Shown here piece after piece: positions 1 through 63,378 of a stretch of DNA of 64,000 nucleotides. Source of the DNA: Takakia lepidozioides (taxonomy: Eukaryota > Plantae > Bryophyta). How positions within the stretch are numbered: the stretch's first letter is position 1; every line of letters starts with the position of its first letter. The notes beneath the pieces are model-generated. The model did not search any database and was not told where the DNA came from. It saw only the letters and a list, made by a program, of their open reading frames with translations. The stretch covers positions 70,928,001-70,992,000 of the forward strand of contig CM060733.1 in assembly GCA_030704615.1 (NCBI GenBank), read 5' to 3'. Both the position numbers and the translations under genes were made by a program.

Positions 1-1026
1 TGGTATGGAATTCTGGACAAGGAGCTCAAGAGAAGGGTGCGAGATGCAACCTTGTTACAAGCAGCCCAACCCACATTAGCAGATGTGTTTCTGCTGGCTG
101 AGCGGATTGAGCTCAACATGGTGGAGGAGCGAGTTGTCACCATTGGATTTGGCAAGGACATGCCTGCACGAGGCGCAGCTGCCAGCCCACAGGCACAAGG
201 TACTACCCAGCAGCGTGGTCAGGGGGGCAAGGTTTCCCAACCCAAGTTCCATGGAGCTTACAGGGGACCTCAGGTGCAGAGGCCCGTGGCATCTTTTGCA
301 GGCCAACAACAACCAGGGGTGATATGTTGGACATGTGGAGGACCCCATGTCAAGAGAGATTGCCCAGAGAGTGGCAGAAGGCCGGCACAAGCACAGCCTG
401 CACAGTTGCAGTGTGGGCATTGTGGCAAGTATGGGCATGGAGATGCCCAGTGTTATGACTTGCATCCTGAGTTGCGCCCAAGCCAGTTCCAAGGGAACAA
501 TGGTGGCCGGGGGCAAGGTGGACCAGCCCAGAGAGGACGAGTTGGTCGGGCACAAGGTGCAGGCCAAGGGCAAGCTCAACATAGCCAAGGACGCGGAGGT
601 CAGGGTGTTGATCAAGGCATGACCAACCGGCTTCAGCAGCTAGAGCAGAGGCTCGCTGCCATGGCTATAGCTCAGGCGGTACCGGCTCCCAGGCGGGATG
701 GTCCACCTCCTGCTCCTGAGGGAGGAGATATGGGAGGCATGGGATTTATGTGCGGAGCAGCACTACCACTAGAGCAGGTGGAGTCTGCTGCAGCCGTGAC
801 TCGAGGAGCAGCACGAGTTCCTGAGCCACGAGGTGCAGAGGTGGAATTGGATCCACAGCGTGGGAGGCAAGCCGTCAGGCAAGGCTTCCTCAGTCATTCA
901 CATTGGCGGAGACTGTATCGACGCCATCCATGGCACCTAGTTCTCGCCCGACTATTACCGAGCGGAGGTTACTATGCCATTGGGGAGAGCTACACGTGCA
1001 GCATTGACTCCTGCTGCCAAGGCTAG
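1..1026 (+). pseudogene. gag C-terminal part with two CCHC zinc knuckles; probable frameshift near 862
   Basis: CWTCGGPHVKRDC and CGHCGKYGHGDAQC plus a G/Q/R-rich nucleocapsid-like region. The N-terminal peptide closely matches the gag copy at 19070-19230. Confidence 0.8.
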
Positions 1027-1756
1027 TGCGGCCGGTGTGTTATTGGGGGCAGCCACCTCTGTATGTCAGGCCCCACTGTTCTCGGCAACAATGATTGCGA
1101 CGCCGGGGGTAAGGCCAGCTGCAGTGTTCAGACTAGCAGCAACACTCTGTGAGAGTGGGGAGGTCATTTCATCTTCTGCGGAGTTAGTGGAAGGTGTAGT
1201 GGCAGAGGGATCCTCGGATTTGAGGGTCAAGACTGCCACGGCTGCGCCCTGGCAAGCTGCAGCTGCCAGGTTGACGGAGCTGCCAGCTAGGCCAGCCTTT
1301 GAGCGCGCCATGGTGACACTTGGAGTTGTCTTGTTAGACAACCAGGGAGGCATTTTCACTTTGAGTGGACCGGTAGGCAAGAAGTACCGGCCACTGCGGG
1401 TCTTGTTGGACTCGGGAGCTCAGCCACTGATGTTGGGCAGAGCTGCTATTGCAGGTTTGGGCCTCATGGAGGCGGATATGGAGCCTTGCCTTTTCCAGAT
1501 ACAGACATCTCTGGGAGGATCAGAACAGGCTCGGGGCATGACAGGGCATCAGTTGGCCATTAGACTGTAGCCGGATCACCCTATCGATGGCTCAGTAATG
1601 CGAGCCAAGGCCATTGTGACAGACGCAATCTCTTACGATGTCCTCGTTGGTGGGGCAGTGTTATACCCCATGGGCTTCACCCTGGACTTTTGGGAGGAGT
1701 CAACATCCTACAGGCCTGGATAGCAGTCAGGCGATGGTCGCCGTGCACAGCTCCCT
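974..1756 (+). pseudogene. retropepsin-like aspartic protease domain
   Basis: RVLLDSGAQP active site and YDVLVGG C-terminal motif. In-frame TAG stops at 1568-1570 and 1721-1723. Same frame as the downstream MTase ORF. Confidence 0.8.
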
Positions 1757-2908
1757 GTGACATTTATTGGGGGTATAGCGGCTGCCCAGCGGGGCAAGAT
1801 GCCAACACTAGCCGCCTTTACAGCTGCAGTTAGTTGGCCTGGAGAGTTGCTGGAAGGCAATGCCCATGCAGAGGATGTGCCACCTCCAGCAGAGCAGGAT
1901 GACATGCATGGTATGGCGGAGTTGCCTGCCATGGTTGCTCACACTCCATTGTGGGGTACGAGCAAGGATTTGCAGCAGGTTGCTGATCGACGGGTACAAC
2001 AAGCCTGGGTAGAGGCTTTTGTTCCGTCAGGAGAGGAGGAGAGTGCGGGTATTGCACCAGGACCACCTCAGTTGTCGCCATTGGACACCACACCTCTTGT
2101 GTGGCAGCGGCCGGATGAAGGCATATGCCTTCTGGACTTGTTTGGCGGGATCAACACTGGATTGGCTGCAGTGCTGCAGGCAGGTGTACGAGTTCGACGT
2201 TACCTGTATGTGGAGAGGGATGAGACTGCACGACGCGTCTCACTGCGCCATGTTGCTCAGATGGTGCAGCAGTACCCTGAGTTGTTGCCGGTGTCTGCAG
2301 TTCGTGGATATCAGCAGGCCTTGCCAGCAGACATTGCGTTGCTGGGGGCGCAGGATTTGGAGCGGGTTGGCTCCATTGATCTGGTAGTGGCAGGTTGGCC
2401 CTGCCAAGGGCATTCATCAGCCGGGCATGGCAATGGATTGCGAGACTCGAGGACGGGTCTGTTTTGGGAGATGGTGCGGATTTTGCGCCACTTGCAGCTT
2501 CATCAGGCTGTATCTCCGGCATACATCTTGGAGAATGTGCCACTGATGGGTGATTCTCGGGCCAGGGTGATGGCCAGTGTGCATCAAGTCCGGTCGTGGC
2601 TTGGGTCAGCAGTGTTGCTGGATGCAGCTGCAGTGGGGTCACGGGCTCATCGTCCACGGCTTTGGTGGACTAATTTGATGCCACCCGCACTGCTCAAGCA
2701 TGCATTTGATGGGGTGCAGCGCCCAGTACACCTCACTGTGGATGGCATTTTGGACACAGGGAGGCAGTCTCAACGTGTGAGACATAATGACCGTTCGCCG
2801 TTGGCAGTGGTCAACAGGATGGGTCACCCACGAGCAGCATTACCTACATTGCTCAGCTTCCCAGGCTCCCATGGCTTTCGAGAACCTTGCCATCGCACAA
2901 CACCGTGA
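1757..2908 (+). CDS. C5 cytosine DNA methyltransferase domain of the retrotransposon polyprotein (motifs I-VIII; C-terminally truncated)
   Basis: Motif I LLDLFGGI (~2129), II YVERD, IV DLVVAGWPCQG with catalytic PC (~2399-2404), V DSRTGLF, VI ILENV (~2531), VII LDAA, VIII AHRPRLWW (~2648). Frame is open throughout. Confidence 0.88.
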   Translation: MTFIGGIAAAQRGKMPTLAAFTAAVSWPGELLEGNAHAEDVPPPAEQDDMHGMAELPAMVAHTPLWGTSKDLQQVADRRVQQAWVEAFVPSGEEESAGIAPGPPQLSPLDTTPLVWQRPDEGICLLDLFGGINTGLAAVLQAGVRVRRYLYVERDETARRVSLRHVAQMVQQYPELLPVSAVRGYQQALPADIALLGAQDLERVGSIDLVVAGWPCQGHSSAGHGNGLRDSRTGLFWEMVRILRHLQLHQAVSPAYILENVPLMGDSRARVMASVHQVRSWLGSAVLLDAAAVGSRAHRPRLWWTNLMPPALLKHAFDGVQRPVHLTVDGILDTGRQSQRVRHNDRSPLAVVNRMGHPRAALPTLLSFPGSHGFREPCHRTTP

Positions 2909-3394
2909 TACGTTGAGGTATGCTACCATACGTGGTGGGGGCTACCGTCCTGGGGTTCGGAGATTCAACCCTGGTGACTATGTCTATTTGCAACAGACTG
3001 CTCCTACGACCTTGGATGTGACTGCAGGACGTGTTATTTTGAGGGTTCGAGAGGTCTTGCCCTCAGGCGTCTTGGTCTTGGAGGGTCGGAATGGCATAAC
3101 ATGGAAGGACCATGTGCGTAATTGTGCGCCATGTCACCTTCCGAATGTCGATGGCAGGATTGACCCAAACCTGGCAGTGGTATCTGCAGGTTGAGGTGCA
3201 TGTTGTGTGGGTCTGCTAGAGGGGCAGCCACCATGCTGGTGTGTGATCGGTGCTCTAGAGGTTGGCATATGGGATGCTTGACGCCACCTCTTGAGAGGGT
3301 TCCGGATGGGGATTGGTTATGTCCACATTGCATGGATAGTGGGAGTGGATACAACCATGCAAGGCTAACAAGAAACGCAAGGCCCAGCTACTAG
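2880..3394 (+). pseudogene. integrase C-terminal (SH3-like) tail followed by a PHD finger; 1-nt frameshift at ~3191
   Basis: ENLAIAQHRD..RY...RRFNPGDYVYL resembles a Gypsy IN tail. CMLC..MLVCDRC.RGWHMGCL.PPL..VPDGDWLCPHC is a canonical C4HC3 PHD. Confidence 0.85.
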
Positions 3395-3597
3395 GAGACC
3401 TGGAACACACGAGATCTTGGCTCAGGTTCACAGATTGCAAGACGGCGACTAACGATGGGGCTATTCTTGTACCCGGCCTCTTGGTCTATAGAGTTTTGAG
3501 TGCCATAGGGACAGTGATAGAGGACTTAGTACGCTGTGGCTATTACATCTTGTAGCTATCTGGAGGAGAGGACCTATCCACCAGCTAGGGGGGTGAT

Positions 3598-4032
3598 TGT
3601 GGTAGACTACTTTATTGTGCATATATGTGTGGTGTGGTTTGGACAGCGATGTAGTTGTGTAGCGATACGTATGCGCACGACAGCTGTCAAGTTAAATAAG
3701 CACAGTGTGAAACTAACTAGAATAAAACTAGTTATTGTATTAACACTTGGATTTGGTTCAAGTGTTAAGTCAGGTGTCAAGTTTGAGCTTGACACCTGAA
3801 CTATCTTATCTTCACGAGAGCGGCAGTCGCGCAGCTCATCTCTCTCGAGTTGAGCCTGCGCGACCGAGCTCCTGCATCGTTTAGGATTGAGAGTGCTTAT
3901 GATGGGAGTGTAGGTTGTTGTGGGGTGGAGTCCCCATAGCTTGGGGTGGCGGTAGACTACTTTATTGTGCATATATGTGTGGTGTGGTTTGGACAGCGAT
4001 GTAGTTGTGTAGCGATACGTATGCGCACGACA
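3598..4032 (+). repeat. 3' LTR-like region with an 82-bp exact direct repeat (3601-3682 = 3951-4032)
   Basis: Starts TG just after the PPT; both repeat copies end in GCACGACA; a diverged third copy of this end lies at ~4964-5009. Confidence 0.65.
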
Positions 4033-4503
4033 CCTGGTCTTCTCAGCTTCTTGTGAGCTGGTGATTTAGGGTAGGTTTGGATGGGGTGCTCCTCGGCCCT
4101 CGCCCAGCGCAGATTCTGGATTCGCAGCTCGTGCCTATTCAAGTTTTTTGTTGAGACACTAGCAGATGTAGCCCAATCCCCCTTGTCAACATTGCTCATT
4201 ATAGGGCTTCATTTACTTGGTTTTTGACCGCTCCCTTGCAATCTCTTCAGTTTGATCCCGCCGAATGGAATTGGATGTCGAAAGATCACCACCCTTTCTT
4301 CGGAGAGAGATGACTCCAGCCGAGGCCGGCGTAACTGAGAGCCACTTCGCCTTGCGGCTACTGCCCCCTTTCGGGGGTGGCCCCTATAAATGCTAGTTGG
4401 TTCCCGGAGGGCACGCCACGGTCCAGGGGTGGGTGAGTTTTGAGGGGAACCCCAGGGGTATATGTGGTATCACAAGAGCTCTTTCCGTTAGGAGAGGAAG
4501 GTG

Positions 4504-4537
<34 letters not shown>

Positions 4538-5215
4538 AAAGTTCCGGCCTAAGACTTTAATTTGCTAGACGATAGAGGAACCAGGGAACCACATGGCATC
4601 ATTAAACCAAGCAGAAGCAAGGAGGACCTGGTTGGCCACCAAGGCCCTTCCCACAATTGAAATGTGAGCTCCAATACTTGAATCTGGCCTTGAGTTTGTT
4701 AATGACAACACCACGCCGTTGTTGATCAGTAAGATCCAAACCTATGAGGTGACCAAGCAAGGTATGGGCCTGGCTAGGTTGAAGCTACCGGAACCCAAAG
4801 TCGTGTCCCAAGGGGGCAGTATGCGACGAGGAGGCTTGCGGGGAGAGCTTCGAAAGAAGGGCCACCGACTTTGGCCAGTTGATTTTGATATGCTCCACCC
4901 TCGATGAAAATGCCATACTCGGACTCGGAAAAAAGTCCAAAACATGAGACCCGCCCAACACTATTTTGGACACTGATATAGTTGTATAGCAATAGGTATG
5001 CGCACGACATCTTTTATGGCCTAACATAAGTATAAATTCTGATGAAAAAGTACATGTCTGTTTAGCTTATTTCATGACCTACAATATTGAATAGTACTGT
5101 GTTTTTGCTTATCTGTTGCGTAGTTGTGTAGTGAAAGTCAATGTATGTGCTTTTGCAAAGCAGTCAATGGGAAGGCCTATACCAGCCTCTGCACATGAAA
5201 TAAGCTAAAAGTAAA

Positions 5216-5390
5216 AGGTGGACGCGTTGCCGAAGCAAGCGCAACTTATGGTGTCACTTGACCCCATAGGGCTACTGCCTTCCGGTGGGAAGGTGGACAC
5301 CGTAATGACTTCCAACAGGTGGATTGAACCCACTACCACTCGTGAGAGGGTATGTGCCCTTACCACTGGGCTACATGCTGGTTGTCGTTG
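5216..5390 (-). mobile_element. tRNA-derived SINE
   Basis: Minus-strand A box TAGCCCAGTGG and B box GGTTCAATCC. Flanked by the 10-bp direct repeat TAAAAGTAAA (5206-5215, 5391-5400). Confidence 0.75.
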
Positions 5391-7272
5391 TAAAAGTAAA
5401 TTCATGGCGGTTTCAACCTCCAAGTGTTGATCATTTAATGAGAATGAAAGCAAGATTTGATTCTCTCTCTCTCTCATTTCTATGATAGGAAAGATGTTAT
5501 CAATTGTATCACATGGAATATGAAAAGTATGCTCTAGTTTATGAAATTGTTATGATGTTATAATAAAAGTGGTGTTATGTGGGTTGATGGATTGCAAAGA
5601 TACACAATAAGGATTCAGGAAGGTGGTATAGTAGAGTGAACACTAGGAGTAATGTAAGAACTTAATGCACATGTGCAATCTCTCACAAGATGGTATGCTG
5701 GTTTCTGGCATGTCAAATCTTCCCCACCCCCTCTTGAGAGTGACATGGAACTGAAGGAAGTGTAGCAGTAGGAGTGACGCTGGATTACGGGGAGGGATGT
5801 CAACTCCACTTGGGATTACACCGGGTTACACAGAAGGGACTGGAACTCTATTCGGGGTTACACCGATTTACACAAAAGGAAGTGTATCCCACACTTGGTC
5901 TCAAAATTTGGCCAAGTACAAATTTGGCTAAATATAAAGTGTACTAAGAGGAGTTACACAAGATACATGGTGACACTACCAAGGGTTGAACCCGCCTTGG
6001 AAGGAGAGGCGAGGCCTTGCAATTACACATGTTTAGATTTTGAGGAGCCATTTTTTGATCCAGCTAGATGAGTGACACCTTTAAGTATGAGAGAATGAAT
6101 GCTTCATGTCTTTGCGTTTGTAAGCCTTCACAGCCATTTTGTCTGATCACACCCCTGTGCCTTTTTATCAAAAAAGAAAAGAATGAATTCAAAATGTAAT
6201 CCAAGTTTGTAAGCAATTTTCATCTCAGTTTCCAGATTTGGTTCTGCAAGAAACAACTCTTGTCTCAAGTTCGCCAGGAGTCCATCATTTGCACACACCG
6301 GGCCTATTGCCTGATAGATTTTTTGCAGTGTATTCTTATGCTTAGAATTGACGGCTCCACATCTCACAAACAAACACTGATTCAATTCATGTGAACGTTC
6401 AGTGGCTTGGGGGATGTCTGTACAGCAGCCTGTCTCAGTCACTGTGCAAAACTAGAGTGACTCTTTTCAAAGATGACCAAATAATGTCTGCTGATCATTT
6501 GTTTAGAGACCATGATCAAAATATGTTTACTTCTCGTTCTTGACATTCCTTCAATGGGCCAAGAATGTCTGATGGCTTACCCAGACACCCTCTGATCACT
6601 CAATATTAGGAGCAGGAGACAAACCCTTGAATTTTGCACCATTGCATTCGACCTTAGAAGCTGGAGAGAGAAGTTGTGGCCTTCCACTGCTCTTCATTAA
6701 GGGGTACATACATGCATCAAGTGTGGAAAGGCTTTCTAATCTGGAAAATCCAGAGTCAAATTCATTTTTACAAGGTGGGTCACACCACTACGTGCTGCTA
6801 GTGGCTGACCTGTCCTACAGTCTCCTTACCTGTTCTGATACATTTGGACCAAGTGGTTCTAAGGCCACAAGGGTGCCACAAAGTAAAGTTGACTGACTGC
6901 ATCGGACTGCAGCAATAACACTCTAGACAACTCAAAGTAGAGTAAATCATGACATATTACCACGCTTGGTACCTGTGAGAATACCCTATAGGTACTATTC
7001 CAATGTAAATATCATGGCTTTACATAACGAAATTTTTGCCTTCTAATATAACAACCCTGGTAAAATGCAACTTATCAGGCTACATAAAGATAAAACATAC
7101 CCACACCACGTCAAATCACAGGGCATGGGCGGTCTGCAGATGGAAGCCAGCCGCCTGACAATCGCAAACATGGCGACTACCATATATCCAAGGTTAACTG
7201 GTGGTGCTAGACATGGGGTGACGTGGCATTTGTTGATCCTCCCACAAACAACTAGTTAGCTTCACTGAACAC

Positions 7273-13814
<6,542 letters not shown>

Positions 13815-15383: not shown

Positions 15384-18089
15384 GGAGGAGCCAAGCACAC
15401 CGCGGCACTCCTGAAGAATTTCTGGCCCAAACTGAGGGAGGAGGCCGAGGAGTATGTCAAGACATGCACCACATGCCAACAAAACCGGAGCGAGTACAAA
15501 AAGCAAGCGGGGCTGTTACAACCCTTGTCGATTCCAGAGGGGTCTTGGGAAAGTGTCTCGATGGACTTCATGACTGCTATGCCGCTGTCAAAAGGATTCG
15601 ACGCAATCATAGTGGTGGTGGATAGATTTACTAAAATGGGTCATTTCATCCCCACCATGGAGACGGCAACGGCGCAGGAGACGGGGCGACCTTATTTCGC
15701 TCACGTCTTCAAGCATCATGGACTCCCGAAGGATATTGTCTCGGACCGCGATCCAAAGTTTATTAGTAAATTTTAGAGGGTACTTTAGAAGAAAATGGGG
15801 ACGAGGCTCAAAATGAGCACCGCCTTCCGACCTACGACGGACGGCCAAACGGAAAAGGTGAATTCCGTGGTGAAGCAGATCTTGCGGAATTACGTGTCGG
15901 CAGACCAATCGGACTGGGTGGAGTACTTGGATGCGACAAAGTTCTGTTAGAATAACACAAAACATTCCGCAACATGAGTTTCCCCTTTCGTATTGGTCTA
16001 TGGAAAAACACCTTTGGTGCCGACAAGTTGGGCCGCCCAAAACGTTGAGGAACCAGCAGCAGCGGCAGTGCTGGAAGAACGCGAGCGTTTGTTGAAGCTC
16101 ACAAAGTACAACATTGTCAAAGCTAGGAAACGGTATGAACGGCAGGCGAATCGGAAGCGGAGGGAGCTTAAGTTTGAGGTAGGCACAGAGGTCTGGTTGA
16201 ATATCAAAAAAATTCGACTACCTTCGGAAGTGAGTCCGAAGTTTGTACCTCCGTATGCTGGACCCTTTCGCATCCGAAAGGTTATGAATGAGGATGTGTA
16301 TGAATTGGAGCTGCCGGCAAACAGCAAGGTGCATCCGGTATTCCACGTCTCCTTTTTGAAGCCTTACTTCAAAGATGAAGCGCGTCCGAATCGGCCTCAA
16401 GAGTTGCATCCGCCACCTGTGCTGTTGGATCATGAAAAAAAACCTGAGTACGAGGTGGAGGCAGTGCTTAAGTCGAGGAGGTTCAAGAATCGAGAAACGG
16501 AGTATCTCGTGAAATGGAAGGGCTATCATCATGTGGAGGCATCTTGGGTGCGTGCCTCAGAAATGAGAAACGCATCCGAGGCGGTTGCAGCTTTCGAAGG
16601 GCGACCTCAAAAGCGGAAGAAGCGTAGATGGGGACATCAACCTTAGAGCATGAGGGAGGAAATGCATGCTTAGCCCGGCTTAGCTAGCTCAGGAATCCAA
16701 TTGCAAAAACTTGTATTGTACAAATTTTGTTATAAAAGTAATGGTTTCCAAATGTTGTGCGTCCTATTTTGTTTGGAATGGTGATGCATGGTATGGTTAG
16801 CTAGTGTGTAGAATGCATGCTAAGCTTACAAAGTGGGAGAGGTAAATTGGATTAATCGTGTGTTTGTGTAGTGCCGAAATCGGGTGACTCCCACCCAAGG
16901 GGCAAAGAAACTTGCACCTTCGTTGGGAGTTCACGTGCTAGTGCGCATCTGGCGCGTGCGCGCACTATAACTGCGCTACCGAGGGGATTGCCTTGTAGTG
17001 CCGGCTAACGCAGAAGCTACGTGCTTCCGTCACGTACTATAATCGTGTAGCCTCGGGACGAAGTCGTAGTGCGGCTTCGGCGTGTTCCCGTACTTCAGGC
17101 TAGCATTCCAAAGCGGACCCAATTGTAGTGATTGAGGCGCACGGTTGGTTCAAGGTTATCTTCCTAGTCAAAAAAAAGGTTCGAGGTGAACCCTTGCTCA
17201 AGGTGATGCCAAAAACGACATCGCGAGCGGTCGCAAGCAAATGTTGTTGCAGTAAGGCGATTCGATCCTCGGGGAGGATCATTCCTTGGCCCTGAAGTGG
17301 GTCAAGAAGAGTGCACTGGGAGGAGCTTGAGAGGCTCCACCCTTTGCCGGGACTTGAAGGAAGTCGGCCGAACTAGCTAGTGGAGAGAAGAGTCAAGTGG
17401 GGGTTTGGTTCTTAGCCATGGGACGCCATGGTGCGGAAACAAACTCCTTGATGTGGGACGCCACAACTTGGATGTTCATTTCTACAAAATGGACAAGTCG
17501 ATGAGGACATCGACTCCCTGTTGGTAGGGATGTGTGTCGCGGCCCTTTGCCTTGAGGGCAGGGAGTTGGGACGCAGAGGGGTTGCCCCTGTGGTGGGGGC
17601 GGTGACGGCAATAGGTACGGGGGGCTAAAACAACCTCGAGTGCCCAAGGCACTCGAGGAGGCGGACCGTGGTGGGTGGGCCAAGACTCACCGCGACTCAT
17701 CACCGGGAATTGAGGGTTTTCGTGGTGGTTCGCCATAAAATGGTGGTGTTGTTTGTGAAACCCCCGCGGACAGTCACAGGAGTATATATAGGGAGTAGTA
17801 ACCCCGAGAACGGTGCAAGCCCGTTGGTGTCCAAAAACTAGTGAGGAAGCGTGCGAGCCGGAAAGCGACCAAGGTGTGGGGAGCTATGCCGGACTGCCAT
17901 CGACCAAAGGGAATTTCCACTAGGCCCGAATTGGGAGAGGGTCTTGTGGAGGAGTTAAGGGGGACCGTTATGCCCCGGTGAGCAGCCGAAGCTCCGAGTT
18001 GGCCCGGCGGCCAGTTTGGGAGTTAGGCGCACGCATCAAGCGAGTAACTATGACTTGAAGGGGAACTTACCGAAGTGAGGTGCGCGACA
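15384..18089 (+). mobile_element. 5'-truncated chromovirus (Ty3/Gypsy): integrase + chromodomain, long 3' UTR, 3' LTR 17535-18089
   Basis: IN motifs CTTCQQN, SMDF, SDRDPKF, DGQTE with several stops; GPF motif; chromodomain YEVEAVL..EYLVKWKGY..ASW. LTR TGTCGC...GCGACA, same family as 46746-53245, with an internal deletion. Confidence 0.92.
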
Positions 18090-18359
18090 CTATTGCTCCA
18101 GCAAGAGAGTATGAAGATAGGGTAGTGGGATGAGACCATAGGAGTGCTTGCGGTGGATGCATGTGCAGGTACAAGTTTACGTTAGAAACCTAGTATTCTA
18201 AACCGTAAGCTGCAACAGATTCTCTACCCGGTTACCTTGTGGAAATGGGGATTAGAGACAGGTTTACAACCGGCGTGGTTGTGAGTTTTCATCACGGATG
18301 TGCCACCAGTTGCTGAGGGGAGTGCCGGTACGAGCACCAACGATACTAATGGGTACACA

Positions 18360-19458
18360 TGACGAGGTGTGCGGTTTAGGCCACCTTCACCTTCGGTGTC
18401 TTCTGAGGAAAGTTCAGACTTGGAGTCAGGAGGATTCTCGTCGAGGGTGCAATTCATTTCCGTACCATTGTTGTGGGACATGATGGAGGAGATGTATAGA
18501 GATACCAAGGGGCCACGTAGGTACTCTGGAGCTGTGGGCACCATCGAGCTTTATGACTTCATACAAGAGTTTGACAGTTGGTGTGATTTGCAGCAGATAC
18601 GCAATCCACAACTATTTACGCCCTTTGTGGCGTGGAATGGGCTATTACAGCACCTTGAGGGGCCGCCTATGGATGATCACCATGAATTTAGGCGGGGACA
18701 TGTGGTGGAGATTGAGGAGTGGCGACAGTATTGGCCACCTAATTACATCTCCATCACTAGAGGCACAATGGCAGCGAACAGCTACACCGTTAGCTTCTGC
18801 AAGCAGCAGTGGGACGAGCGGTATAGGATCAGCTGGGACTTCCACCTAAGCCCCTGCTGCACCAACACTAGCACCCGTGCCTGCCTTTAACCCAGTTGTG
18901 GAGTTCTTCGAGGAATTGAGGAGGAACTACCAATGAGTGAAGACAGAGAAGTTGCAGAGCTTGCAAGAGTTCCAACGCAACCTACTGAGAGTTTGAGGGA
19001 GGCTTACACTCGCATAAGGCGCTTGATAAGTGTAACCCAAGGGGTTACGGAAGCTCAGGCAGTCCAATTCTGGTATGGGATATAGGATAAGGAGCTGAGG
19101 AGAAGGGCGCGGGATGCAACTCTCCCACAAGTTGCCCAACCCACCCTAGCAAATGTGTTTTTGCTAGCAGAATAGATAGAGCTCAACATGGTGGAGGAGC
19201 GAGTGGTTATAGTGGGATTTGGCAAGGAGACACAACAAAATGGGGCTCCTAGCCAACAACAACCAACTCCCAACGTGTTCAAGGCAACAAAAGGGTTCAG
19301 ACAAAACCCAGGGAAGGTCAGAGAGGATCTCAGATGCAGAGGTCTCTTCCTTTATTCTCAGGCCATGAACAACAGATGAGTGTGTCATGTTGGGATTGTG
19401 GAGGACCACATGTGAAGAAGAATTGCCCAGAGAGAGGCAAAGGGTCGGCACAGACACA
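18360..19458 (+). pseudogene. degenerate gag of the same family as the DNMT/PHD retrotransposon
   Basis: WYGI.DKELRRR.RDATL...QPTLA.VFLLAE.IELNMVEERVV..GFGK and the CWDCGGPHVKKNCPE knuckle match 1-370. Several stops and frameshifts; cut by a CACTA end at 19459. Confidence 0.85.
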
Positions 19459-20190
19459 CACTACAGGAAAAGGGGGGGGGGTTAGTGACGCTGCGGCAAC
19501 AGTGCGGCCATGCCGCGGCGTCACTAAACGCCACTTGTTGGGCAAGGGCGGGGGGGCCTTTTTGCGATGCTCGGGTGTGGCACAACTGTCCCCAGGGCCT
19601 CACTAGTATAACGTCGCATAAATGCGACGGATGGGGGTTGCAAGCCGTTGCCCCCCTCCAGTGACGCCCCGACGTGGCATCTTGGCGATCCAGGGTGCTG
19701 GCAGGGGCTTCCTTCTATCCACGCTCGGCAGTCGCTACCCTCCCGGCGACGGCGTTGGCTAGGGCGACTGCTCGGCGTCGCACCACATTTTTTTCTCTCC
19801 ATGCCCGGGCGTCGCATACTAAAAAAACACCACGTGGTGGAGGGGGGGTGTTAGGCTCAGCCACGTGGTGGCGTCGCGGCTAGCCACCCCCGGGTGTCGC
19901 AAGGGGAAACCCCATCGTAGCTGAAGAGTCACCCACTGCGACGCCGGGGCGTGGGTACTTGCGACGCCCGGGGGTGGCTAGGTGTTTTTTTTTACAAAAA
20001 ACACTGGGAAGGTGTTGCTACTGCGTTGGTGCTAGTGATGCCCGGCCATCGCTGGTTGCGACCCCCACCCGCGGCAAGCCAAAAAAAACCCGTCGCAAGG
20101 GCGCTGGTCCAGGCGACGCCCTGCTGTGGCATTCTGGGTGGGGGCGGGGGGGGGGGGGGGTTGGGGGTTCATTTTGGGGGGTGAATTGGG
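19459..20190. mobile_element. CACTA (En/Spm) terminus with subterminal repeats
   Basis: Begins CACTACAGGAAAA exactly where gag homology stops; dense GCGACG/CGTCGC repeats in both orientations; no partner end found. Confidence 0.7.
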
Positions 20191-23100
20191 GGTGTTGTGT
20201 ATACCGTTGTGTGTATGACCCATGAGGGCAATGTCCCTGTTGAAATTGCCTGCTAGAATATAGTGCTGGGAGTGGATGGAGGATTGGGTTAGTGTGTTAG
20301 AGATCGTGAGTAGAATATCAGGGATCAGGGGGAGATCTTTGGCATGTGAGGGCATGTACAAGTGTATAAGGATAATGGGGGGGAGCACGGGGAGGTGTAG
20401 TTTGATGATTTGAAGGTGTGATCGGAGGGGGAGAGCGACAAGAATTTTGACCGTGGTGCTAGGGGAGTGATATGTGCGGAGGATACCAAAAGCCACCCCG
20501 CCCCGGGTAGGATGGTATGGCGCGGAGCGTCTAGTTAGGCACTGTGCGGCTGTGAATGAGTTACCATACAGCATATAGTAAGGCTGGAAGGAGTTTGTTG
20601 ATATGGGAACTATTGGGGTTGTGTGTGTTGAGTTTAGTTTCTTGTAATAGGATGATATGCGGGGGTGTAGAATCCGTGAGATGGATAAGGCTTTGAATGC
20701 TGGTGGCAAGTGATCCTACATTCCTGCAAATAAGTATATTGAGTGCGTGTGCTTGCTGGGAGGAGGAGGTGTGTGGGGAACTGTGGGATCTAGGGGTTGT
20801 TGGAGGTGGGTCATTGGTGGAGCTGGGCATGCATGATGGGGTGGTGGATGGCGGTGTCATGGACGGGGGTTGACATCCAGGGATGCCAGTCTTGGCATGA
20901 AGGGTTGCAATGAGAATTTTTTTGGAGAGGAATGGGAATTTGTTGGCGATAGTATTTAGCTCGTGTATGGTTGTAGTTGGGTGTGCCAGGTGTTCGTCGA
21001 GAATCCTATGGATTTCTCCGGGCTTGGATTGTAGTAGACCGAGAGATTCGTGGAGGTTGTGTAGGTAGTGTGGGGGTGCTAGATATCTATGAGGTAGTGT
21101 GGGTAAATCATGCAGTTGTTGTAGTAGTGAACAAATGTGTGTGTCTGGTTGGGTTCGAAAGTAGTCGTTGCATATGGAGGGTATTGGGGAGATGATGGTG
21201 ATTAGTGAGAAAATGAGGTGTTGTATGGGGTATGTGCTAAGTTTATGGGTGGCACTGACTAGGGATGGGTGTTGGCACGCAGGGAGCCCAAAGGTGGCAA
21301 TTGGGTGTGTAGGTTTGCAGTTATTGGTGGAAGGGTTGGGGAGAAAGGGAGAGAAGTGGCCACTAAGGTGTTGATATGCAGGTACTAGTGAGACAGTGTC
21401 TGTTTGGAAATATAGTGCAGATCTGTCTTTATGGTCTTTTGAAAGCTTGTTGATGATGCTAGTGATGGTAGAGGGGCCTGGGTTTGGGTGGATGTCGCCG
21501 CAGCGTAGTAGTATAAGCGTTTCACAGGCAAGTTTATAGGACTTAAAGTAGGACGGTGGATGGTGAGAGGAATGTTTAGATGCGAGAGGTTTCTGGTGAT
21601 ATCTCCCATGTGGGCAGTGGGTTATAAGTTGGATTTTGAGGGAACGGGGGGTAGGGGTGCGTGGGGGATAGCTGTTAAAAAGGTGTATGAGGGGAATGGA
21701 TTTGGTGGTAGCGTAGTGGGTACGAGTGGAGCTGGTTGCTTGTGTGTGCGTGGGGGTTGTATATTGAGCGTGGGTATTCGTAGGTTTAAACGTAGGCCAT
21801 AGTTGTAGGGTAGGTATATTGATATAGGCATACCATGTTTTTTAGTGTAAAGGAGTGTTGAATTGGGATGTGGGTGCCAATAGGGGGTGGAGGGATTTGT
21901 GTTGGTGCTGGTAGCATGGGATGTATAGATGGTGTTGTTCTATTTACGCATGGTCTATAGTGAAATGAAATTTGTGGGGTGTGTCGAATGGAACATGGAT
22001 GATATGTTACCGCAATGCAATGAATAATTGACTGACAATGGTAGTAATCATTGAGTAAAATCATGGAGTAATAGTCACTGAGTAAAATCATGGAGTAGAA
22101 GTGGATCATTGCATGAGAACAGAGCGTAAAGATCATGGTGTAAAATTGTTTTGAGTGAGAACAGATCATGGGGTAAAATCATGGTGTAAAATTGTGTAGT
22201 TGTGTAAAAGTGTGTGGGGAGAGTAACAAGTGTGGAAAGTTGATTGAAAAAGATAGAGCCAGTATGTCCAAGTAGCTTGTATAGAGGAGGATGGGAGCGC
22301 TGGGTGCTCCTCGCTTGGAAGAGAGCCTGTAAGAAATAGATGCGGGTTAGAGCAATGAACAGATAGTGTGGAGTGTATACTTGGGGTTACACCATATGAT
22401 GAGGTCATGTCATACAAATGAAAGGAGGGGGACATACTGAGCAGATCGTGTCTAGCGCTGAAATAGCATTGGAAACTAGTTTGAGAGCAGATAGTGGAAT
22501 TGTGGGAAGGCCGAGTATAATAATGCAGAGGTGGGTAAGATCTGCTAGAACCATGAGACCATTTACATTGGGTGATGTGGAAAGCAGAAAACTTGGTAGG
22601 TAGCAGATGTGTGTTGAAATCAGGAGCCCATAGACTTGAAAGGGGATCATGCAGAATAGAGGGAAGTGGTGCGAGTAAGGGAGATGTGGATGAGACGAGG
22701 TGGTTACCTGTGTTGAATTTGTGCTTCAGATGGTAGAAATTGAGAGGACTTGTACCTGAAAGAGTAGGGCAGGGTACCATGGATGGTGGCTGGCAACGGG
22801 CAGGTGGTCGAGAGTGCTGGACTTGGGCAGCGAAGCGCTTTAGGTGTATGCGTGGCTGATCCAACTCGGTAGTGAGGTGCCACTTAAGATCGGGGATCCA
22901 TCTGTGGCATAGTAACTGTGCATCAGAATATGATGAAACTTCATTGTAAGTAGAGCCGAATCTATTAAACAATGAGAAGGAAGAGAAAAACCAAGATTGG
23001 GGGGAAGGGTGAGTGTGCTCCCAAAGAATAAGAAGATAGTGATCTGATTGAGGACGGAGATTGAGCCACCACTGTTGCCATTGCCATGGCACCTGAGTGG

Positions 23101-23430
23101 AAATGTTGGCAGCAGTGTTACGGGGCATGAAGTCACCGCCACGGTTGTGGAATCAGCTGAGAAGGGTTGGCCAGTCCAGCAACCTTAGCCAGTCCATCAT
23201 AATTCTCATTTCCTTGACGTTGTGGTGCGCACACCACTGCGGTGCAGGGATGGTGGCCGGGATCTTCTGATTGCGTGTTGGCATGTAGGGGGGGAGAAGC
23301 CTTTGGGGGCAGTATAAGCGCAGCTCCATGTCACAAAGTAGAGGCAGATATATGGTCTTACCCGTCATGAGCAGGGTATGTCCGAACTTGTTGAGCGTAG
23401 AGGGCCTCAGCCCTATGGGTGCCGCTGCTT
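20190..23430 (-). mobile_element. LINE fragment: degenerate ORF1-like region and APE endonuclease; RT missing
   Basis: ILICRNVGSL, IILLQETKL, GGVAFGI, HLYMP and ILAGNFN motifs at ~20240-20740; A/C-rich coding strand. The upstream boundary is approximate. Confidence 0.7.
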
Positions 23431-24265
23431 CCCCCATCATTTGATCATAGGTCTCCAAGGCCTCCATACCATGTCCCTGCCATGCAAAACCTGCAAGCAT
23501 CGCATTCCACGACACCACATCTCGTTCAGCCATAGTGTCGAACACTCATTTTGCATCCTCGATAAACCCACATTTTGCATACATGTCCACTAGGGTATTG
23601 TTCAGAATGACAATTGGTACAATTCCAGCTCTGAAGATGTCGCCATGGATCTCTTTGCCCTTTTCTAGAGCTGCCAGGGCCGTCTGCAGAATGACATTTG
23701 GTACAACTCCAGCTTTAATGATGTCATCATGCACATATTTGCGCTTTTCTAGGGCTGCCAGGCTTGCACAAGAAACGCAAACAAATGTGATCCGATCTGG
23801 CTTCAACCCTTCCTGCAGCACTTGCTCATAGGTCTCCAAAGCCTCCAGCCCACACCCATGCTGGTCTACACTCCCACATTTGTCATACATGTCAACAACG
23901 GCAGACTTCAGAATAATATCCGCCACAATTCCAGCTTGAATGATGATGTCAGCATGGACCTCTTTGCCCTTCACCAGGGCTGCCAGACTGGCATATGCAT
24001 TGGAATGCAAAGGAAGGTAGCCTTGTCAGGAATCACCCCTTGTCAGATCATCTGCTCATCGATGTTCAGATCAGCCCCCCTCCCAAAGCCATGCTGTTCC
24101 TTAACGTTGTAAACCTTAGTCACATTCTTGATTTCATCAAACACTTGACAAGCATCCTTAAGGCTCCCACAGTTGGAGTACATGTCGGCAGGGGCTGTCT
24201 CCAGCATGATGTCGGCCACAATTTCAGCTCTGATGATGTCAAGATGGACCTGAGTTGCTGCGTGC
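23430..24265 (-). pseudogene. PLS-class pentatricopeptide repeat gene fragment
   Basis: Repeated motifs LVDMYAKCG, RDVVSWNAML, EALETY, GLKPDRITFV, GKEIH; stops and internal deletions. Confidence 0.85.
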
Positions 24266-24929
24266 CTTTGAGGTATGTTTGGCAGGTTCTGCTTAACAGA
24301 GAAGATCAACACGAATTCATGGAGCCATCTGTGGCATAGCAGCTGGGAATCGAAGAATAATGATAGAGCCTTATATGCAATGTGGAATCTATGTAACACG
24401 GGAAGAGAGGGGGGTGTCCGAGGATGGGGAGAGGGGGGAGTGTGCTCCCTAATGCCTGCCCCATAGGTTGCTGTTTCTTCAATTGTCATTGGGATGTCCC
24501 TCTGCAGCTCCCACTTATTGACGAGAGACATACCGAGATGCTGCAATTTGCCCTGCCAGCCAGCATTAAGAAATTTTCCCTGGCAGATTGAGAAGTAGGC
24601 TTTGAAGGTCTCCTGCCACCTATTTGCCTCGCTACGGTAGTCTTCAGCTTCTGCCAGTTGTGGGAAACCACATATGTCTTGAGATAGATGACCAGCTTGC
24701 AAAGTAGGGTAGCTGGAAAATGAATCTCTCATTGACGAATTTGGTTCTGGGAGCAGATTGTAAAGCATAATGGGCTTGGAATACATTGACTGGAGCATCC
24801 TTGAGCTGTGGGATGTTGAACGAGTCAGGTCCAATCAAAATGCTCGTCCATCAGCTGCAGTACGTAGGAGGGTTCCTTGCTGCGAATTGTCGTAAGCAAG
24901 CCCTGCTTCAACGAGGCGATCTCCCTTCA

Positions 24930-25100
24930 TCTCGACCGTAGCACTCCATGAGATCACATTTGTGTGAGCCATATTATCAGACCCTTGATGTGCAGCCTTC
25001 ATACTTCCACACTTTACATACATGTCAGCAAGGGCGGTCTCGAGAATGACATCTTGAGCGATTCCAGCTTTCAGGATGCAGGCATGGACCCCGCTGTTCA
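24930..25100 (-). pseudogene. second PLS-PPR fragment
   Basis: VHACILKAGIAQDVILETALADMYVKCGSMKAA..NVISWSA. Confidence 0.75.
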
Positions 25101-25439
25101 TTGCATTACCACGTCGTACAACCTTGTACCAGGAGCCACCCTCTCCAGTAGTGCACAAGTGCAAGGCAGCCCTTTGAGATGCGGGATGAGAGGTCCCAGC
25201 CATGATCGTGGACTTAGAAGAGATTGGGGGGGGCACTCTCGTTATGAGCACGAGTAACTAGAGTGCTTATAACGCACTTGCAAGCCTTAGCTGTTACCAT
25301 ATGAGAAGACACAGTGTGGGGGTTGAAAGGGGGATTGTTACCGGGGGTAGCAGGGTTGAGGTCATGATCACGAGAGGCAGAGTTGGTGGCGGGTTGCCGT
25401 TGGGGGTATTGAAGTAGTAGCACCATCCCGTTGCAGCCA

Positions 25440-26733
25440 TGAGACAGATTGGCAATACTTGGTGTCCAAGGAAGGCCCCGGGATCAACATGCCCTACTAC
25501 ACCCTGTGCACAGCGGAAAAATCTTTTATCCAGGGATGTACCTCAGATCTCTCTCCTCGTGGCTGATCTTCTTCCTGTACCAATTCCCTTAATCTTTCTT
25601 GTAAAGAATAAGGAGTGGCATCCAACTCTAGTTCTTCCGGTATGGGTGATGTACTCTCTGATCTTAATGGTGTGAGAGGTCCAGATGATTCCCCTATGTC
25701 TATTCCTCTCTCCCAAAGATATGGATAATTAGCTTCCAGATAACTTTCTCTTTTTGCTGAATATCTCTGGAGTCTAGCTTCTCTTTCATCACTCATGTCC
25801 TATGTCTTTCATATCTTTAATGAGGCAATAACCAAAACTCTCTCCTGTAGTATCTCTCGTATATGCCCGGATTTCTTTCAAGCTTCAATGCACCCTTGGC
25901 TATACTAGAGGTCTCTGTTACCATATATCCATATGGCAAGCACGTCTGAAAAGCTGTTTCTAGGTGTCAGTTTGATCCACAGGATATCCTTAGGAATCCA
26001 ATTCTTTACCAGTACAAGCTCTTCATGCATATGAGTGCAAACATTCACTTTCCTTTCCTCCCAGCCTTCAAACTCTACTCGCTTAATGGATAGCAATGCT
26101 ATCACATAAACCAGTGTAGGTAACCAACGTGCTCTCCCTCTATAGGCCACCCGATAAATCTTTATCACTCCTTTCTCCAAACCCCACTCAGGGTCAACAT
26201 CAAGCACTCTCTTAAGAATGTTTTCTTTACAACCGTCTAGCAATTCCAAGAACCTCTGAAAGAATTGTTTGGACAATCTTTCCTTCTCCGTTCGACAGGG
26301 AATTTGATTCACATCAAATTCTTTAATTCTCCAACCACCATGATCCCACCAGATGTCTGTCACATCTGGTTGTTCATGACCCAGTTCCCCAATATGGTCG
26401 CCAAATGTCGAGCGGCTTTTACTCACCCATCCCTTCGCTATCCGAGGTGGAAACTCCAAGATAGAAGAGTTGGAAATCTCTAAGCACTCAGCCCGCTCAG
26501 AACAATCAGTTATGACCTACAGTTAGTGAATCATGGTTGTTCTTCCTATTTGTATTTCTTCTTGCCTTCATGTTATCAATTTACCTTACTGTGTATACTG
26601 AAGCATCAGATTGCTTCAGTATCTATCAAGTTACATTTACTTTTCGATTCATTCCACAGCTTCACTCATGTCTCTTTACACAGTATGTTTGTATCGAATA
26701 AGTATCAGATTATGATTTATCAGGTATCAGGCC
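25440..26733 (-). mobile_element. 5' fragment of an LTR retrotransposon: LTR 3' part (26406-26733), PBS and unrecognised ORF(s)
   Basis: 26406-26733 is a reverse-complement homologue of 32068-32392. LTR end ...CGACA is followed by TT-TGGCGACCATATT. ORFs 25905-26400 and 25497-25796 follow. Confidence 0.7.
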
Positions 26734-26756
26734 AAAGACCCTCCATAGCTTCTCGT

Positions 26757-29700
26757 ATGGACGTATTCGACATTTTCGACGATGAAGATGAGTGCATTGA
26801 GGTCCCCATGTCCTCCACACGGTCGTTCAAATCCGACATGGACGTCTCTGCAGGTGCTATGCATGTACTCTCGAGCATAACTCCAACCCGGTCCATTGTG
26901 CAGCTCCTACGACAACATCACCTCGATGGTTCTCGCTCCGAGCTGGCTGCTCTCGACTATGCCAAATTTCCGGTCAGGAAGGTAACGTATCTGCCTCCCG
27001 AAGTCGATGGCAATGTCATCTTCGAGTTTCCACCTGTCACTTCCTCAAACAAAGCCTCAGGGATGTTAACAGACATGGATCGAAAGCATGACAGACACCC
27101 CTGGTGTGTGACGAAGACCAGTAGCACGAAAATTGCTGATGGTGTTCGTGTACGATACGTCCTCTGTGCGGGGAAGCTGAGGTGCCTGAATCCCGCCTGC
27201 TTCCACTTTCTTTCCAAAGGAGGGCGGAGAAACGAGACGGATTGGACTGGCACAACGCATCATCCATTCATTGTCTCCAGCCAAGCTCCTGCGGGTACTT
27301 TCAAGTGCGCACATTGCAAAGAACCACCGACGTGCATGTCCATGTGCAGAGCCAAGCAATATTACGTTATCCATTTGCTCCCGGACTTGACTAGAGCTTG
27401 CATACACGTTGGGGTCCACTGCCACCCCTTGGCGAGAGGCAACATACGTGAGGCTGTGCAGGAAGCACACGACATCATAAAAGAGGAGGTGAAATTGAGC
27501 CCCGGAGCCAGACCAAAGCAGATTCAGCTGAAGGCAGCCCATAAGATTGCTCTTGGAAAAATCATGTCTAAAGATGGTTCAGACCGAGTACCCTTGAACG
27601 AAGAGGAGATGCTTGACCTGTTGGAATCCGTCTCGCACGTTTGTAGTCCGAATGTGCGGAATCACATCGTATCTTGCAAGCAGGAGTTCGGCCGAGGGTC
27701 GGACATGCACTCAATCCTGGAGGTGAAACGAATGACTAGATATGACTACATCCAAGGTAGCAGGTTTCCAGGGCAAGGCAGCGAATCCGATCGTTGTTAC
27801 ATTTTTAAAATGTCGACGTGTGGGTCTGGGAGTGGAGTCGACTTGGTCACTCGCATGACAACTGGAAACCTGTCGAATGTTTGGGTGATGTTTGATCACA
27901 TCGAGCGAATTACAAACCATAAGTGGGTGACTATGGGTGCGCATGTTTATGACTATCACTCCAAGATGCTCATGACGATTGCAATCTGCGAGATGAAAGG
28001 GGAGGACACATAGTTGGAGATGCATCTGTGGGAGGGCATAAACGAGCAGATGGCAAGGGCGGGATTGCCAGAGCCCAATTTCAGGGGATTCATGGCAGAC
28101 AACGCTCAGGCCAACTGGGCAGCGGTGCGGCGTGTGTACGGTGAGGACCCCAATGTGCCAATGGAGGGGAAAGAGAGATCCTGTGGATTCCATTGGATGC
28201 AGAGTCTATCCCACTACACTACCAAATTTGTTGCTAGCTCATTCCAGGCTGAACACCGTGTCCTTTGTACGGCGTGGAAGGATGCACCCACATTTGATGA
28301 CGCAGGTTAAGTTTGCTATCATCGAGGCTTGGTGGAACACGTCAGGTGCAGTGGAGACAACCAATCTGGGAGCCTTGCACAGCTGGTTGGGGTGGTGGCA
28401 TTTCCGGTATCGACAGTTCGGACAGTACATGCGGGAGGTATGATGCTGTCATTTTCGTGCAATTGTCTTTCTATTACGGACCTTTCCATTGGTTCCTCAC
28501 CATTGTCTGTGTCCTTGTAGGAGCGGTGCTTGGATTCCGACACGGACATGCCGAACACGAATATGGCAGAATCAGTGCACTCCTCCTGGCGAGCGTCTTC
28601 TGCCGCACATCTGGTGGACGTAGTGACGGCCACAACAAAGGACATCGACAGAGCAATCATGCAGCAAGCCACGTACTACAAGTTTCCGAGCGGGAAACAA
28701 TGGGGCTTTGGGCCGGACAGGGAGGAATTGTTGGTGCGAACAGCTTTGAGGTCGAAGAATCCACTGAAATGGGCGACAGCATTGCGAGAGAAGATCAAAG
28801 GGACGCCTCTGCACCGCAGAGGTGAGCACCTAGAGGGGGACGTCCGTACTCGCTCTGTGAGGCGGAGGATTAAAGAGGAACCCAGGTGCAAAGAGGCATT
28901 CCTGGAGATCCGACAGGAACATTCGGACAGCACCTCAAGGGCCCGTCATGTTGCCGCACAATGTGTCTTCCAGCAGTGGAAGCCCAAGAAATTCCAAATC
29001 GCCATCGCCTTCAAGCGGGGATTCCGTGCGAGAAATTCCCACCGCTCGCTTGCCCCAGATTCCGCCCCCTGTTATGCAGTATGGCCAAGCCATTGTGGAG
29101 ACGACTGTGTCTGCGTCACAGTGGAGAATTGCTCGCACAAAGCCGTCGTTTCGAGGCAGGTGTTCCTCAATTCGAGTGGATACACGACAACGTTGTTTAG
29201 AGATGATAAGGAGGAATCCAGATGGTGTTGTCCCTGCTCCTACTTTTACAGGAAGATTTGTCCATGCAAAGTTTGCGGAGGCGACAACCACCCAGTTCTG
29301 GTTCTGCAGGCACGACATTATGACTCGCGTGTATGGAAAGCCCAAGTACGGCATACAAACAATGCCAGAGGCTCCCCCGGTGTGGCCGGTGGAACCAGGC
29401 TGCGATCTGAGTCAGGTTGAGGCCGACGCCCTTACCGCCGCAGGATTTCGGATGGTGCAGCGCACTGACGTCCCCAGACAACCATTTTCGCTTCCACAGC
29501 CTCCACCACCGACCCCTGTGAGAGCAAGAACAATGGGACCTGACAGCTCTAAGCATCCTACACACCGTTGGGGGAAACCGAAGAGGCGGCGACCTCCCTC
29601 AAAAGTGAACGAGACAAGGATAGGGAATGCACTTCGGATGAACTGTACAATCCAGAGCTCGACAGAAGTGCCCCCACCAGGCTTCGGGCGTGTGTATCAG

Positions 29701-29952
29701 ATGGCCACGGCAGGCTCAGCTGTTTGCAATGAGGTGTACACCATCACCATTTCAGAATTACCCACCTGCAATTGCACCGACTTTCAGATCATGACGAACA
29801 AGGGGGCATCATACTGCCCTTGCAAGCATCTGTACTACGTGTACCTAAAGAGACTCCGGTGTAATTCCACAACTCATCACTTCATACATGCACCAGGGTT
29901 GAGCCCCCAAGAGGTGCACACTCTTCTGAATATGGATCCAGGGGACCAGTGA
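26757..29952 (+). pseudogene. Mutator-like (MULE) DDE transposase with N-terminal GCM-like zinc domain and C-terminal SWIM finger, about 1030 aa when reconstructed
   Basis: MFDH (~27894), FMADNAQA (~28098), CGFHW (~28182), TNMAESVH (~28569), SWIM CNC..CKH (~29767-29830). Phase-0 GT-AG intron 28438-28520. Lesions: TAG at 28011, frameshifts at ~28305 and ~28880. Confidence 0.8.
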
Positions 29953-55410: not shown

Positions 55411-55551
55411 GGGTGCACGAATCAGAGTAGAATTTTTGGGGACAGCTATCCCTGTTCTACCATCAGCACTAGGAACATGCCATTGATATAAGAGTTGCAG
55501 ATCAGGCTGAAGTTTGTAAAAATCATTCCAATTGAGACTGGAGTGAGAGTT

Positions 55552-63200: not shown

Positions 63201-63378
63201 GTAGAAACACCTAAAATGGACCATTTAAAGAAATGTGTGTCGTTTCAGGTGTGCAGTGTCGTCATAAATATATTTATGATGTGGGCACAGAGAAATGAGA
63301 TTAATGCAAAAAATAAAAAATAATAATCCGAATTATTTTAAAATATTGGTGAATATCCAATGTGAAATCGTAGAATAA

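Follow-up and report, generated by a model that had tools for sequence, protein, structure and literature searches.

Results and discussion

The stretch of DNA analysed here, 64,000 nt of contig CM060733.1 (the window), carries at its left end, positions 1 to 4032, one copy of an abundant retrotransposon of Gypsy type that bears a cytosine DNA methyltransferase (DNMT) domain; this copy is dead and has an internal deletion. The 5' end of the element lies upstream of the window start. What remains of the copy, and the other features of the window, are collected in Table 1. Relatives used for comparison are denoted P (proteins) and L (element loci, from metagenomes); X1, X3 and X7 are sequencing runs of the same organism.

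C5-methyltransferase motifs I (2135–2152), IV with the catalytic cysteine (2393–2410), VI (ENV, 2531–2539) and VIII (2648–2668) were found where a first-pass annotation of the sequence had placed them, and in one frame with the protease (PR), although this common frame is broken by TAG stops at 1568 and 1721. In run X1 another base makes up more than 97% of the summed depth at each stop, and most other copies are without both. The match of the open reading frame (ORF) at 1724–2905 to the methyltransferase profile was significant (50 bits, cut-off 22), as the annotation had expected, and the two zinc knuckles that it had seen in gag are present as CX2CX3HX4C (325–363) and CX2CX4HX4C (412–453). 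The window gag had no Pfam match at E 0.1, and the match of the retropepsin region was weak (PF13650, E 0.037, under the cut-off); the aspartyl protease family was matched in 13 of 25 relatives. The predicted integrase (IN) tail and polypurine tract (PPT) were also located downstream, but the supposed long terminal repeat (LTR) proved to be a composite of three repeats, B1-A2-B2, at 3598–4032, beyond the end coordinate that the annotation had given.

In the Marchantia protein P0003 a single ORF spans gag, protease and DNMT, which marks the changes of frame near 861 and 961 as lesions; in contigs of the same organism the length differs at both sites. The deletion at 2868–2885 took away about 3.1 kb (sized against L029), comprising the end of the DNMT with motifs IX–X, the stop that follows it, reverse transcriptase (RT), RNase H (RH) and the integrase core. 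Among the matches listed, with 2,855 more outside the list, no contig bridged the joint. Two stops, three frameshifts and this deletion leave the copy unable to make RT or a complete DNMT, and in itself it is an ordinary relic. A moss copy, L015, has a similar deletion at 10966–11114, which runs from the end of its DNMT to its integrase tail.

Compared with the majority of the family, the window copy has 181 differing places, of which 77 are of deamination type and 37 are changes in the opposite direction. A difference-free contig spans the end of the element and its flank (4006–4348, runs X1 and X3, both from one sample). Despite the 181 differences B1 and B2 are nearly identical, which may reflect a recent remobilisation of the dead copy or gene conversion.

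Table 1 Features of the window (coordinates in nt; + and minus denote the strand)
Feature	Position	Strand	Basis or remark
gag, 3' part, with two zinc knuckles	1–860	+	46% identity to Marchantia P0003
Two frameshift lesions	near 861 and 961, within 861–965	+	gag/PR-DNMT is one ORF in P0003
Retropepsin region	1298–1768	+	LDSG at 1403–1423
Cytosine methyltransferase of predicted DNMT3 type, motifs I–VIII and part of target-recognition region	2117–2885	+	PF00145, E 3.4e-13
Deletion joint, about 17 nt fitting either side	2868–2885	+	other copies diverge here on both sides, 4/4 runs
Integrase C-terminal tail	2868–3191	+	61% to Klebsormidium P0035; 68–73% to L032 and L029
PHD finger ending integrase	3197–3331	+	PF00628, E 1.5e-12; frameshift near 3190 in window copy
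Polypurine tract	3587–3593	+	same site before B in L007, L015, L016, L023, L029
Terminal repeat B1 (TGTGG...GACA)	3598–3682	+	resembles B of L007, L029, L018
Palindromic B–A site GACA-GC-TGTC, putative integrase cut site	3679–3688		
Repeat A2 (begins TGTC)	3685–3948	+	analogy with L007, L029 (A at both ends)
Terminal repeat B2, right element end (...GACA)	3949–4032	+	83/85 identical to B1 (compared over 3948–4032)
VPS4/SKD1 host gene, eight exons	7276–13814	minus	nearest Nothoceros aenigmaticus
Older decayed gag fragment, same family	18483–19458	+	52% to P0003 residues 1–249; 71% DNA identity to 1–395
Decayed PPR gene pieces	23156–25257	minus	PPR_2 E 2.5e-6 in 1/4 pieces scanned
Older decayed RNase H-integrase fragment, same lineage	32901–34417	+	70% DNA identity to L004, L007
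Young Gypsy element, 731-bp LTRs 99.5% identical	46746–53245	minus	
Second Gypsy pol and integrase	53683–56037 and 45737–46756	minus	flank young Gypsy element

Relatives and abundance

In run X1, 41,108 contigs align to the element stretch, covering gag, PR, DNMT, the IN tail and the repeats alike. Summed contig depth is 0.46–1.19 million across the coding part and 48 in the unique contig at the element end; this is not a copy number and is taken, together with the contig count, only as a sign of family size, by which the family is very large in the window host.

The named relatives among 38 long hits were from Marchantia (15 hits, 56–75%), Calypogeia, Closterium and Klebsormidium, and among 100 shorter hits from Marchantia (5), Calypogeia (4) and Sphagnum (2); further ones were from Scenedesmus, Closterium and Mesostigma. 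Chromosome-level liverwort and moss assemblies carry the family, and a protein library clustered at 50% contained 171 clusters at E 1e-30 or better. There was no named vascular plant in the 138 hits; about 8,000 candidates were scored per search, so this absence is unproven. Viral contigs gave only phage methyltransferases (26–46%), which served as an outgroup. One element DNMT, P0224, comes from a 2.4-kb contig and is labelled as a protein of a bacterial metagenome-assembled genome, into whose bin plant or algal DNA has likely strayed.

A DNMT-carrying lineage of Gypsy type in an embryophyte, as the annotation had proposed, is upheld by the land-plant VPS4 gene adjoining the element and by the liverwort and moss relatives. 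That the contig is algal instead, or that the DNMT was a one-off capture by the window copy, is extremely improbable. The kind of element was described from an alga, and the assignment to land plants comes from one gene, in whose exon tree Nothoceros is nearest without support and the lineage is not separated. Exon 1 of this gene is, however, 93% identical to the protein of Nothoceros, a hornwort, and 82–90% to those of 15 other land plants, the family is found in the chromosome-level assemblies, and contigs of the same organism cover all parts of the element evenly. On this gene alone the host is firmly a land plant, and a hornwort would seem likely.

RT follows the DNMT in 35 of the 53 metagenome element loci, and the whole order gag-PR-DNMT-RT-RH-IN-PHD is present in five (L007, L016, L029, L032 and L036), counts in which several loci are one insertion assembled twice. 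The gag of relatives matched Retrotrans_gag in 7 of 25 proteins and showed a weak likeness in fold to PNMA2 and HIV capsid in a structure search (best E 0.014). Of 116 long proteins, 41 have the DNMT behind PR and 56 have it behind RT or RH. The latter position is seen in a sister group with the order RT-RH-DNMT-IN-PHD (P0045, P0050, P0073, P0154 and others), whose sole named host is Scenedesmus and which is a separate branch in both the RT and the DNMT tree. On this branching, the DNMT would either have moved within the polyprotein or have been captured twice.

The two trees, which were made by a quick method with few outgroups and no host DNMT3, agree in outline: the PR-DNMT-RT elements (from streptophytes where named) stand apart from the RH-DNMT-IN elements, and the window groups with copies from liverworts and mosses in a starred branch. 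The largest subfamily clusters with named Sphagnum proteins in the DNMT tree. Compared with P0003, P0006 and P0209, the window DNMT shows 56–75% identity across the window host, liverworts and moss; so high an identity between such old lineages may be due to slow change or to transfer among bryophytes.

The stop between DNMT and RT

The annotation had placed the DNMT inside pol. This does not hold for the land-plant relatives, in which a conserved stop parts it from RT. The stop is in frame and 17–24 codons upstream of the RT leader in all 33 loci in which the leader was found (25 TAG, 8 TAA). It is followed directly by CAA or CAG in 31 of these loci and by CAR-YYA, a readthrough-type stop context, in 7, over four lineages. 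As a control, 71 decay stops were followed by CAR in 3 cases and by CAR-YYA in none. Twenty proteins of the land-plant clade terminate 68–154 residues past motif X, and two more at 177 and 192; the Klebsormidium-type proteins and one from Closterium continue into RT with no stop. The conserved stop and its context suggest that Gag-PR-DNMT is the main product and that RT-RH-IN-PHD is made by readthrough, in which case the DNMT is likely produced at the level of Gag.

The methyltransferase domain

The element DNMT is, as judged from its sequence and modelled fold, of DNMT3 type. A family profile matched DNMT3A (E 5e-27), then DRM2 (7e-13) and HhaI (2e-9), with tRNA methyltransferases far weaker (5e-5). 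The top Foldseek hits of a model of a whole relative DNMT (pLDDT 92) were all DNMT3. DNMT3 thus came first by sequence, profile and fold, and DRM and bacterial enzymes were next in two sequence searches. The domain is unrearranged (not in the DRM order) and intronless, and Pfam detected no PWWP, ADD or other targeting domain in the element DNMT proteins.

The catalytic cysteine and the glutamate of ENV are conserved in 62 of 62 element DNMTs, and the arginine residues of motif VIII in 60 and 61 of them; motif IV is variable (PC, EC, DC) and the asparagine of motif X is mostly substituted. The ratio of nonsynonymous to synonymous substitution rates (dN/dS) was 0.11 for L032 against L033 (dS 0.25), the one unsaturated pair, 0.12 for L032/L033 against L036, 0.12 for the window against the moss family (dS 2.1, near saturation) and 0.09–0.27 for near-saturated pairs. 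There is, therefore, purifying selection on the DNMT between lineages.

It is improbable that the domain has ceased to methylate DNA and serves instead to bind nucleic acid, to methylate RNA or as a spacer in the structure of the particle. The changes in motifs IV and X would be consistent with this, a dose at Gag level would be apt for a structural protein, and no methylation was obtained with the Klebsormidium enzyme in yeast (PMC5890265). The two catalytic residues have, however, been kept throughout, the full DNMT3 fold is predicted, the likeness to tRNA methyltransferases is slight, and human DNMT3B failed too in the same yeast test (PMC5890265).

Element ends, priming and integration

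L029 is complete and reads A1, genes, PPT, B1, A2, B2. By analogy, repeat A2 of the window would hold the promoter, R and U5, and its partner A1 would lie before the window start. The ends of the element are TGTC...GACA, with 4-bp target duplications (AAGG in L029, CACA in L018). The window, L007, L029 and L036 share the same 10-mer at the B–A site, and L032 departs from it by one change. L015 and L016 terminate after a single B.

B stands before A in none of the eight distinct 5' ends, and a canonical Ty3/Gypsy element with paired LTRs was rejected on this ground; features of Ty3/Gypsy elements are nevertheless present in the terminal sequences, the 4-bp duplications (L029, L018) and the PPT before B. 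Split direct repeats of the form A...B-A-B are known from DIRS, Ngaro and PAT elements, which use a circular intermediate and a tyrosine recombinase. Membership in the DIRS order was rejected, as the window family has a DDE integrase (rve, PF00665, in relatives) and 4-bp duplications.

The A...B-A-B ends, the 4-bp duplication and the palindromic B–A site together suggest integration from a circle. Alternatively, an extra template switch, as proposed for DIRS-type elements, could give linear A...B-A-B directly, and the integrase would then act on linear ends with no circle involved; we regard this as possible but doubtful. The element ends and their 4-bp duplications are the usual products of a DDE integrase acting on linear DNA, and the mirror form that a circle should also give appeared in 0 of 8 cases. 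The A–B joints vary among insertions, however (2 nt in L029; 17 nt with a 9-nt remnant of the primer-binding site (PBS) in L018/L019; shorter in the window), and B1/B2 and A1/A2 of L029 are equally diverged (94% and 92% identical), so that both pairs were renewed at insertion. A linear route also leaves the constant palindrome unexplained. We prefer the circle as the simplest reading.

In two related families 16 nt of repeat A, about 20–30 nt behind a TATA-like box, are complementary to the bases directly after A. The stem in L029 has a z score of -4.4, and L032 has a different primer/PBS pair. This complementarity would fit self-priming by the element RNA, in the manner of the Tf1/Sushi priming geometry.

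The solved PHD fingers nearest to that of the integrase are those of CHD4, KDM5B, PHF21A, ATXR5 and KDM5A. The PHD fingers of CHD4, KDM5, PHF21A and ATXR5 read unmodified H3 tails.

Proposed mechanism

We propose that in intact relatives the DNMT is made at Gag level, packed in the particle and methylates the new cDNA before integration, and we hold this to be fairly probable. Readthrough, packaging, cDNA methylation, the circle route and PHD targeting are what we infer from the sequences; gag-PR-DNMT-stop-RT-RH-IN-PHD in one frame is seen in relatives. Readthrough of the stop would yield RT-RH-IN-PHD, and the DNMT would then far exceed RT in each particle. The element RNA would prime its own reverse transcription, and the linear BA...BA cDNA would close to a circle, which the integrase would open at the B–A site. 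The protease would release the DNMT, which would methylate the cDNA, likely at CG, and new copies would arrive marked for maintenance by the host. The PHD finger would likely direct integration to nucleosomes with unmodified H3 tails.

Two positions are known for the DNMT, both inside the polyprotein of the particle, and no targeting domain accompanies it. On these grounds its likeliest role appears to be the methylation of cDNA within the particle, with a somewhat better than even chance of being the true one. We consider it rather unlikely that an active DNMT works instead in the nucleus on chromatin, be it the insertion site, older copies or rival elements. With expression at Gag level, cleavage by the protease would set free plenty of enzyme, the PHD finger is similar to those of chromatin readers, and the window copy has its excess of deamination-type changes. 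Both the missing targeting domain and the retention in the polyprotein speak against a nuclear role, however, and host methylation explains the deamination equally well.

Several observations count against methylation of particle cDNA by a Gag-level enzyme and the route drawn for it. In 25 of the 33 loci, all of one moss subfamily, the stop is followed by CAA-CCC or a near variant and then ATG, not by CAR-YYA, and it is from the latter context that readthrough is argued. Stems 3' of the stop are weak (z -0.6 to -3.4) and not clearly above shuffles. The stop region is deleted in the window and hence not observed in the window host; the self-priming data likewise come from relatives, the window's own 5' end being absent. 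L032 and L036 are probably collapsed assemblies. A mirror form, A-B-A...B, was never seen, though a two-LTR circle has two B–A sites, and both ends are visible in only two insertions. A decayed moss subfamily has an internal dN/dS of 0.53 (RT 0.52), with 1.06 for singletons. The CpG ratio is 0.48 for the element, 0.83 for the neighbouring chromovirus and 0.32 for the host gene, and does not discriminate. KnitGypsy-Dnmt3 did not methylate yeast DNA, a result that its authors call inconclusive (PMC5890265).

A wider statement, that a clade of the green lineage from chlorophytes to all three groups of bryophytes makes a DNMT3 at Gag level via a leaky stop, methylates its cDNA and integrates by a DDE enzyme from a circle opened at a palindrome, is tentative and more likely wrong than right.

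Comparison with known systems

The annotation had taken the element for an undescribed system, but its kind has already been described: KnitGypsy-Dnmt3 is a Gypsy element of Klebsormidium nitens with a DNMT3-type domain (de Mendoza et al. 2018, PMC5890265). The two share an unrearranged, intronless DNMT3-type domain in a Gypsy polyprotein under purifying selection and, according to the legend of a figure in that paper, a DIRS-like repeat structure. The Klebsormidium element has the Gypsy domains PR, RT, RH and DDE integrase, which the five whole-order loci also have in that order and of which the window keeps PR and the IN tail. The DNMTs are 45% identical, and each of the two trees joins the elements in one branch, though support is moderate (81 for RT and 86 for DNMT). 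In contrast to KnitGypsy-Dnmt3, the window family is in land plants, is very large and has the conserved stop between DNMT and RT. As this stop, present in all 33 loci, keeps DNMT and RT from sharing a single open frame, the window family is a variant of the KnitGypsy-Dnmt3 kind and not a plain member. A PHD finger, self-priming, a 4-bp duplication and a palindromic site are not mentioned in the portion of the KnitGypsy-Dnmt3 text consulted (PMC5890265).

Other retrotransposon-borne C5 methyltransferases are those of SymbioDIRS-Dnmt3 and SymbioLINE-Dnmt, elements that differ from the window family in having a tyrosine recombinase or LINE (long interspersed nuclear element) machinery and are separate captures (PMC5890265). 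SymbioDIRS-Dnmt3 methylates CG in yeast, and methylation of cDNA was proposed for the DIRS elements (PMC5890265). EpiLTRs, a further separate capture, differ in their DNMT4-related enzyme with DAM and chromodomain (bioRxiv 10.64898/2026.05.21.726589). Tf1/Sushi elements and the plant Tcn1 chromoviruses are self-priming, as predicted for two families related to that of the window, and resemble the window family in a chromatin reader ending the integrase, but have a chromodomain and not a PHD finger, plain LTRs and no DNMT (PMC6317226). Tcn1/Tf1 chromovirus membership was rejected, as a PHD finger takes the place of the chromodomain; the window's own chromovirus, set as outgroup, lies outside the DNMT-element group in the RT tree. 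Troyka is likewise an atypical Gypsy-like group, and was rejected since it is found in animals only and has CG...CG ends, a 3-bp duplication and no methyltransferase (PMC12440569). The host genes PpDNMT3a/b of non-flowering plants have a DNMT3-type catalytic domain in the same unrearranged order, but host DNMT3 genes carry DUF3444 and the intronless element domain does not (PMC6453930). A host DNMT3 gene was rejected, as there is no DUF3444 match in Pfam, no intron and a flank of gag, PR and IN.

No paper on the family in land plants was found in the literature searched, although subscription papers, Repbase, figures or preprint supplements may contain one; in the parts consulted, two later papers of the same group name only 'streptophytes' as hosts. 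The readthrough-type stop, the A...B-A-B ends with duplication and palindrome, and self-priming were not found in the literature examined.

The benefit to a transposon of having a silencing enzyme of its own has been in question since 2018, as the hosts, Symbiodinium and Klebsormidium, are hard to work with. The question can be tested in the genetic model Marchantia polymorpha, whose chromosomes carry the family, and the stop that parts DNMT from RT leads to a definite prediction for enzyme dose. If the wider statement above is true, the family would add a further, selfish source of de novo methylation to a host with thousands of its copies. A DDE integrase would be taking an uncommon route in producing split ends with a target duplication, and software that looks for paired LTRs would likely miss or misplace such elements. 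In Marchantia, pieces of the family are listed as hypothetical genes of the host, which can distort the number of methyltransferases counted.

Surroundings of the element

To the right of the element, an older B end lies at 4965–5009 (87% over 45 nt, 930 bases from the element), probably a remnant of another copy. A separate repeated stretch at 4313–4466 has high contig depth, with its peak in run X7, and no Rfam match; an Rfam scan of 3300–6000 gave none.

Pieces related to the young Gypsy element occur at 15384–18091, with an end that by eye is chromodomain-like, and at 63143–63976. The second Gypsy element, parts of which flank the young one, was probably its insertion target. The decayed PPR pieces have motifs that we take to resemble the PLS class. 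Three further ORFs were assigned by eye: one on the minus strand at 20035–21841 is like a LINE fragment, one at 26484–29949 resembles a SWIM-finger DNA transposon and one at 38197–39018 resembles an EnSpm transposase.

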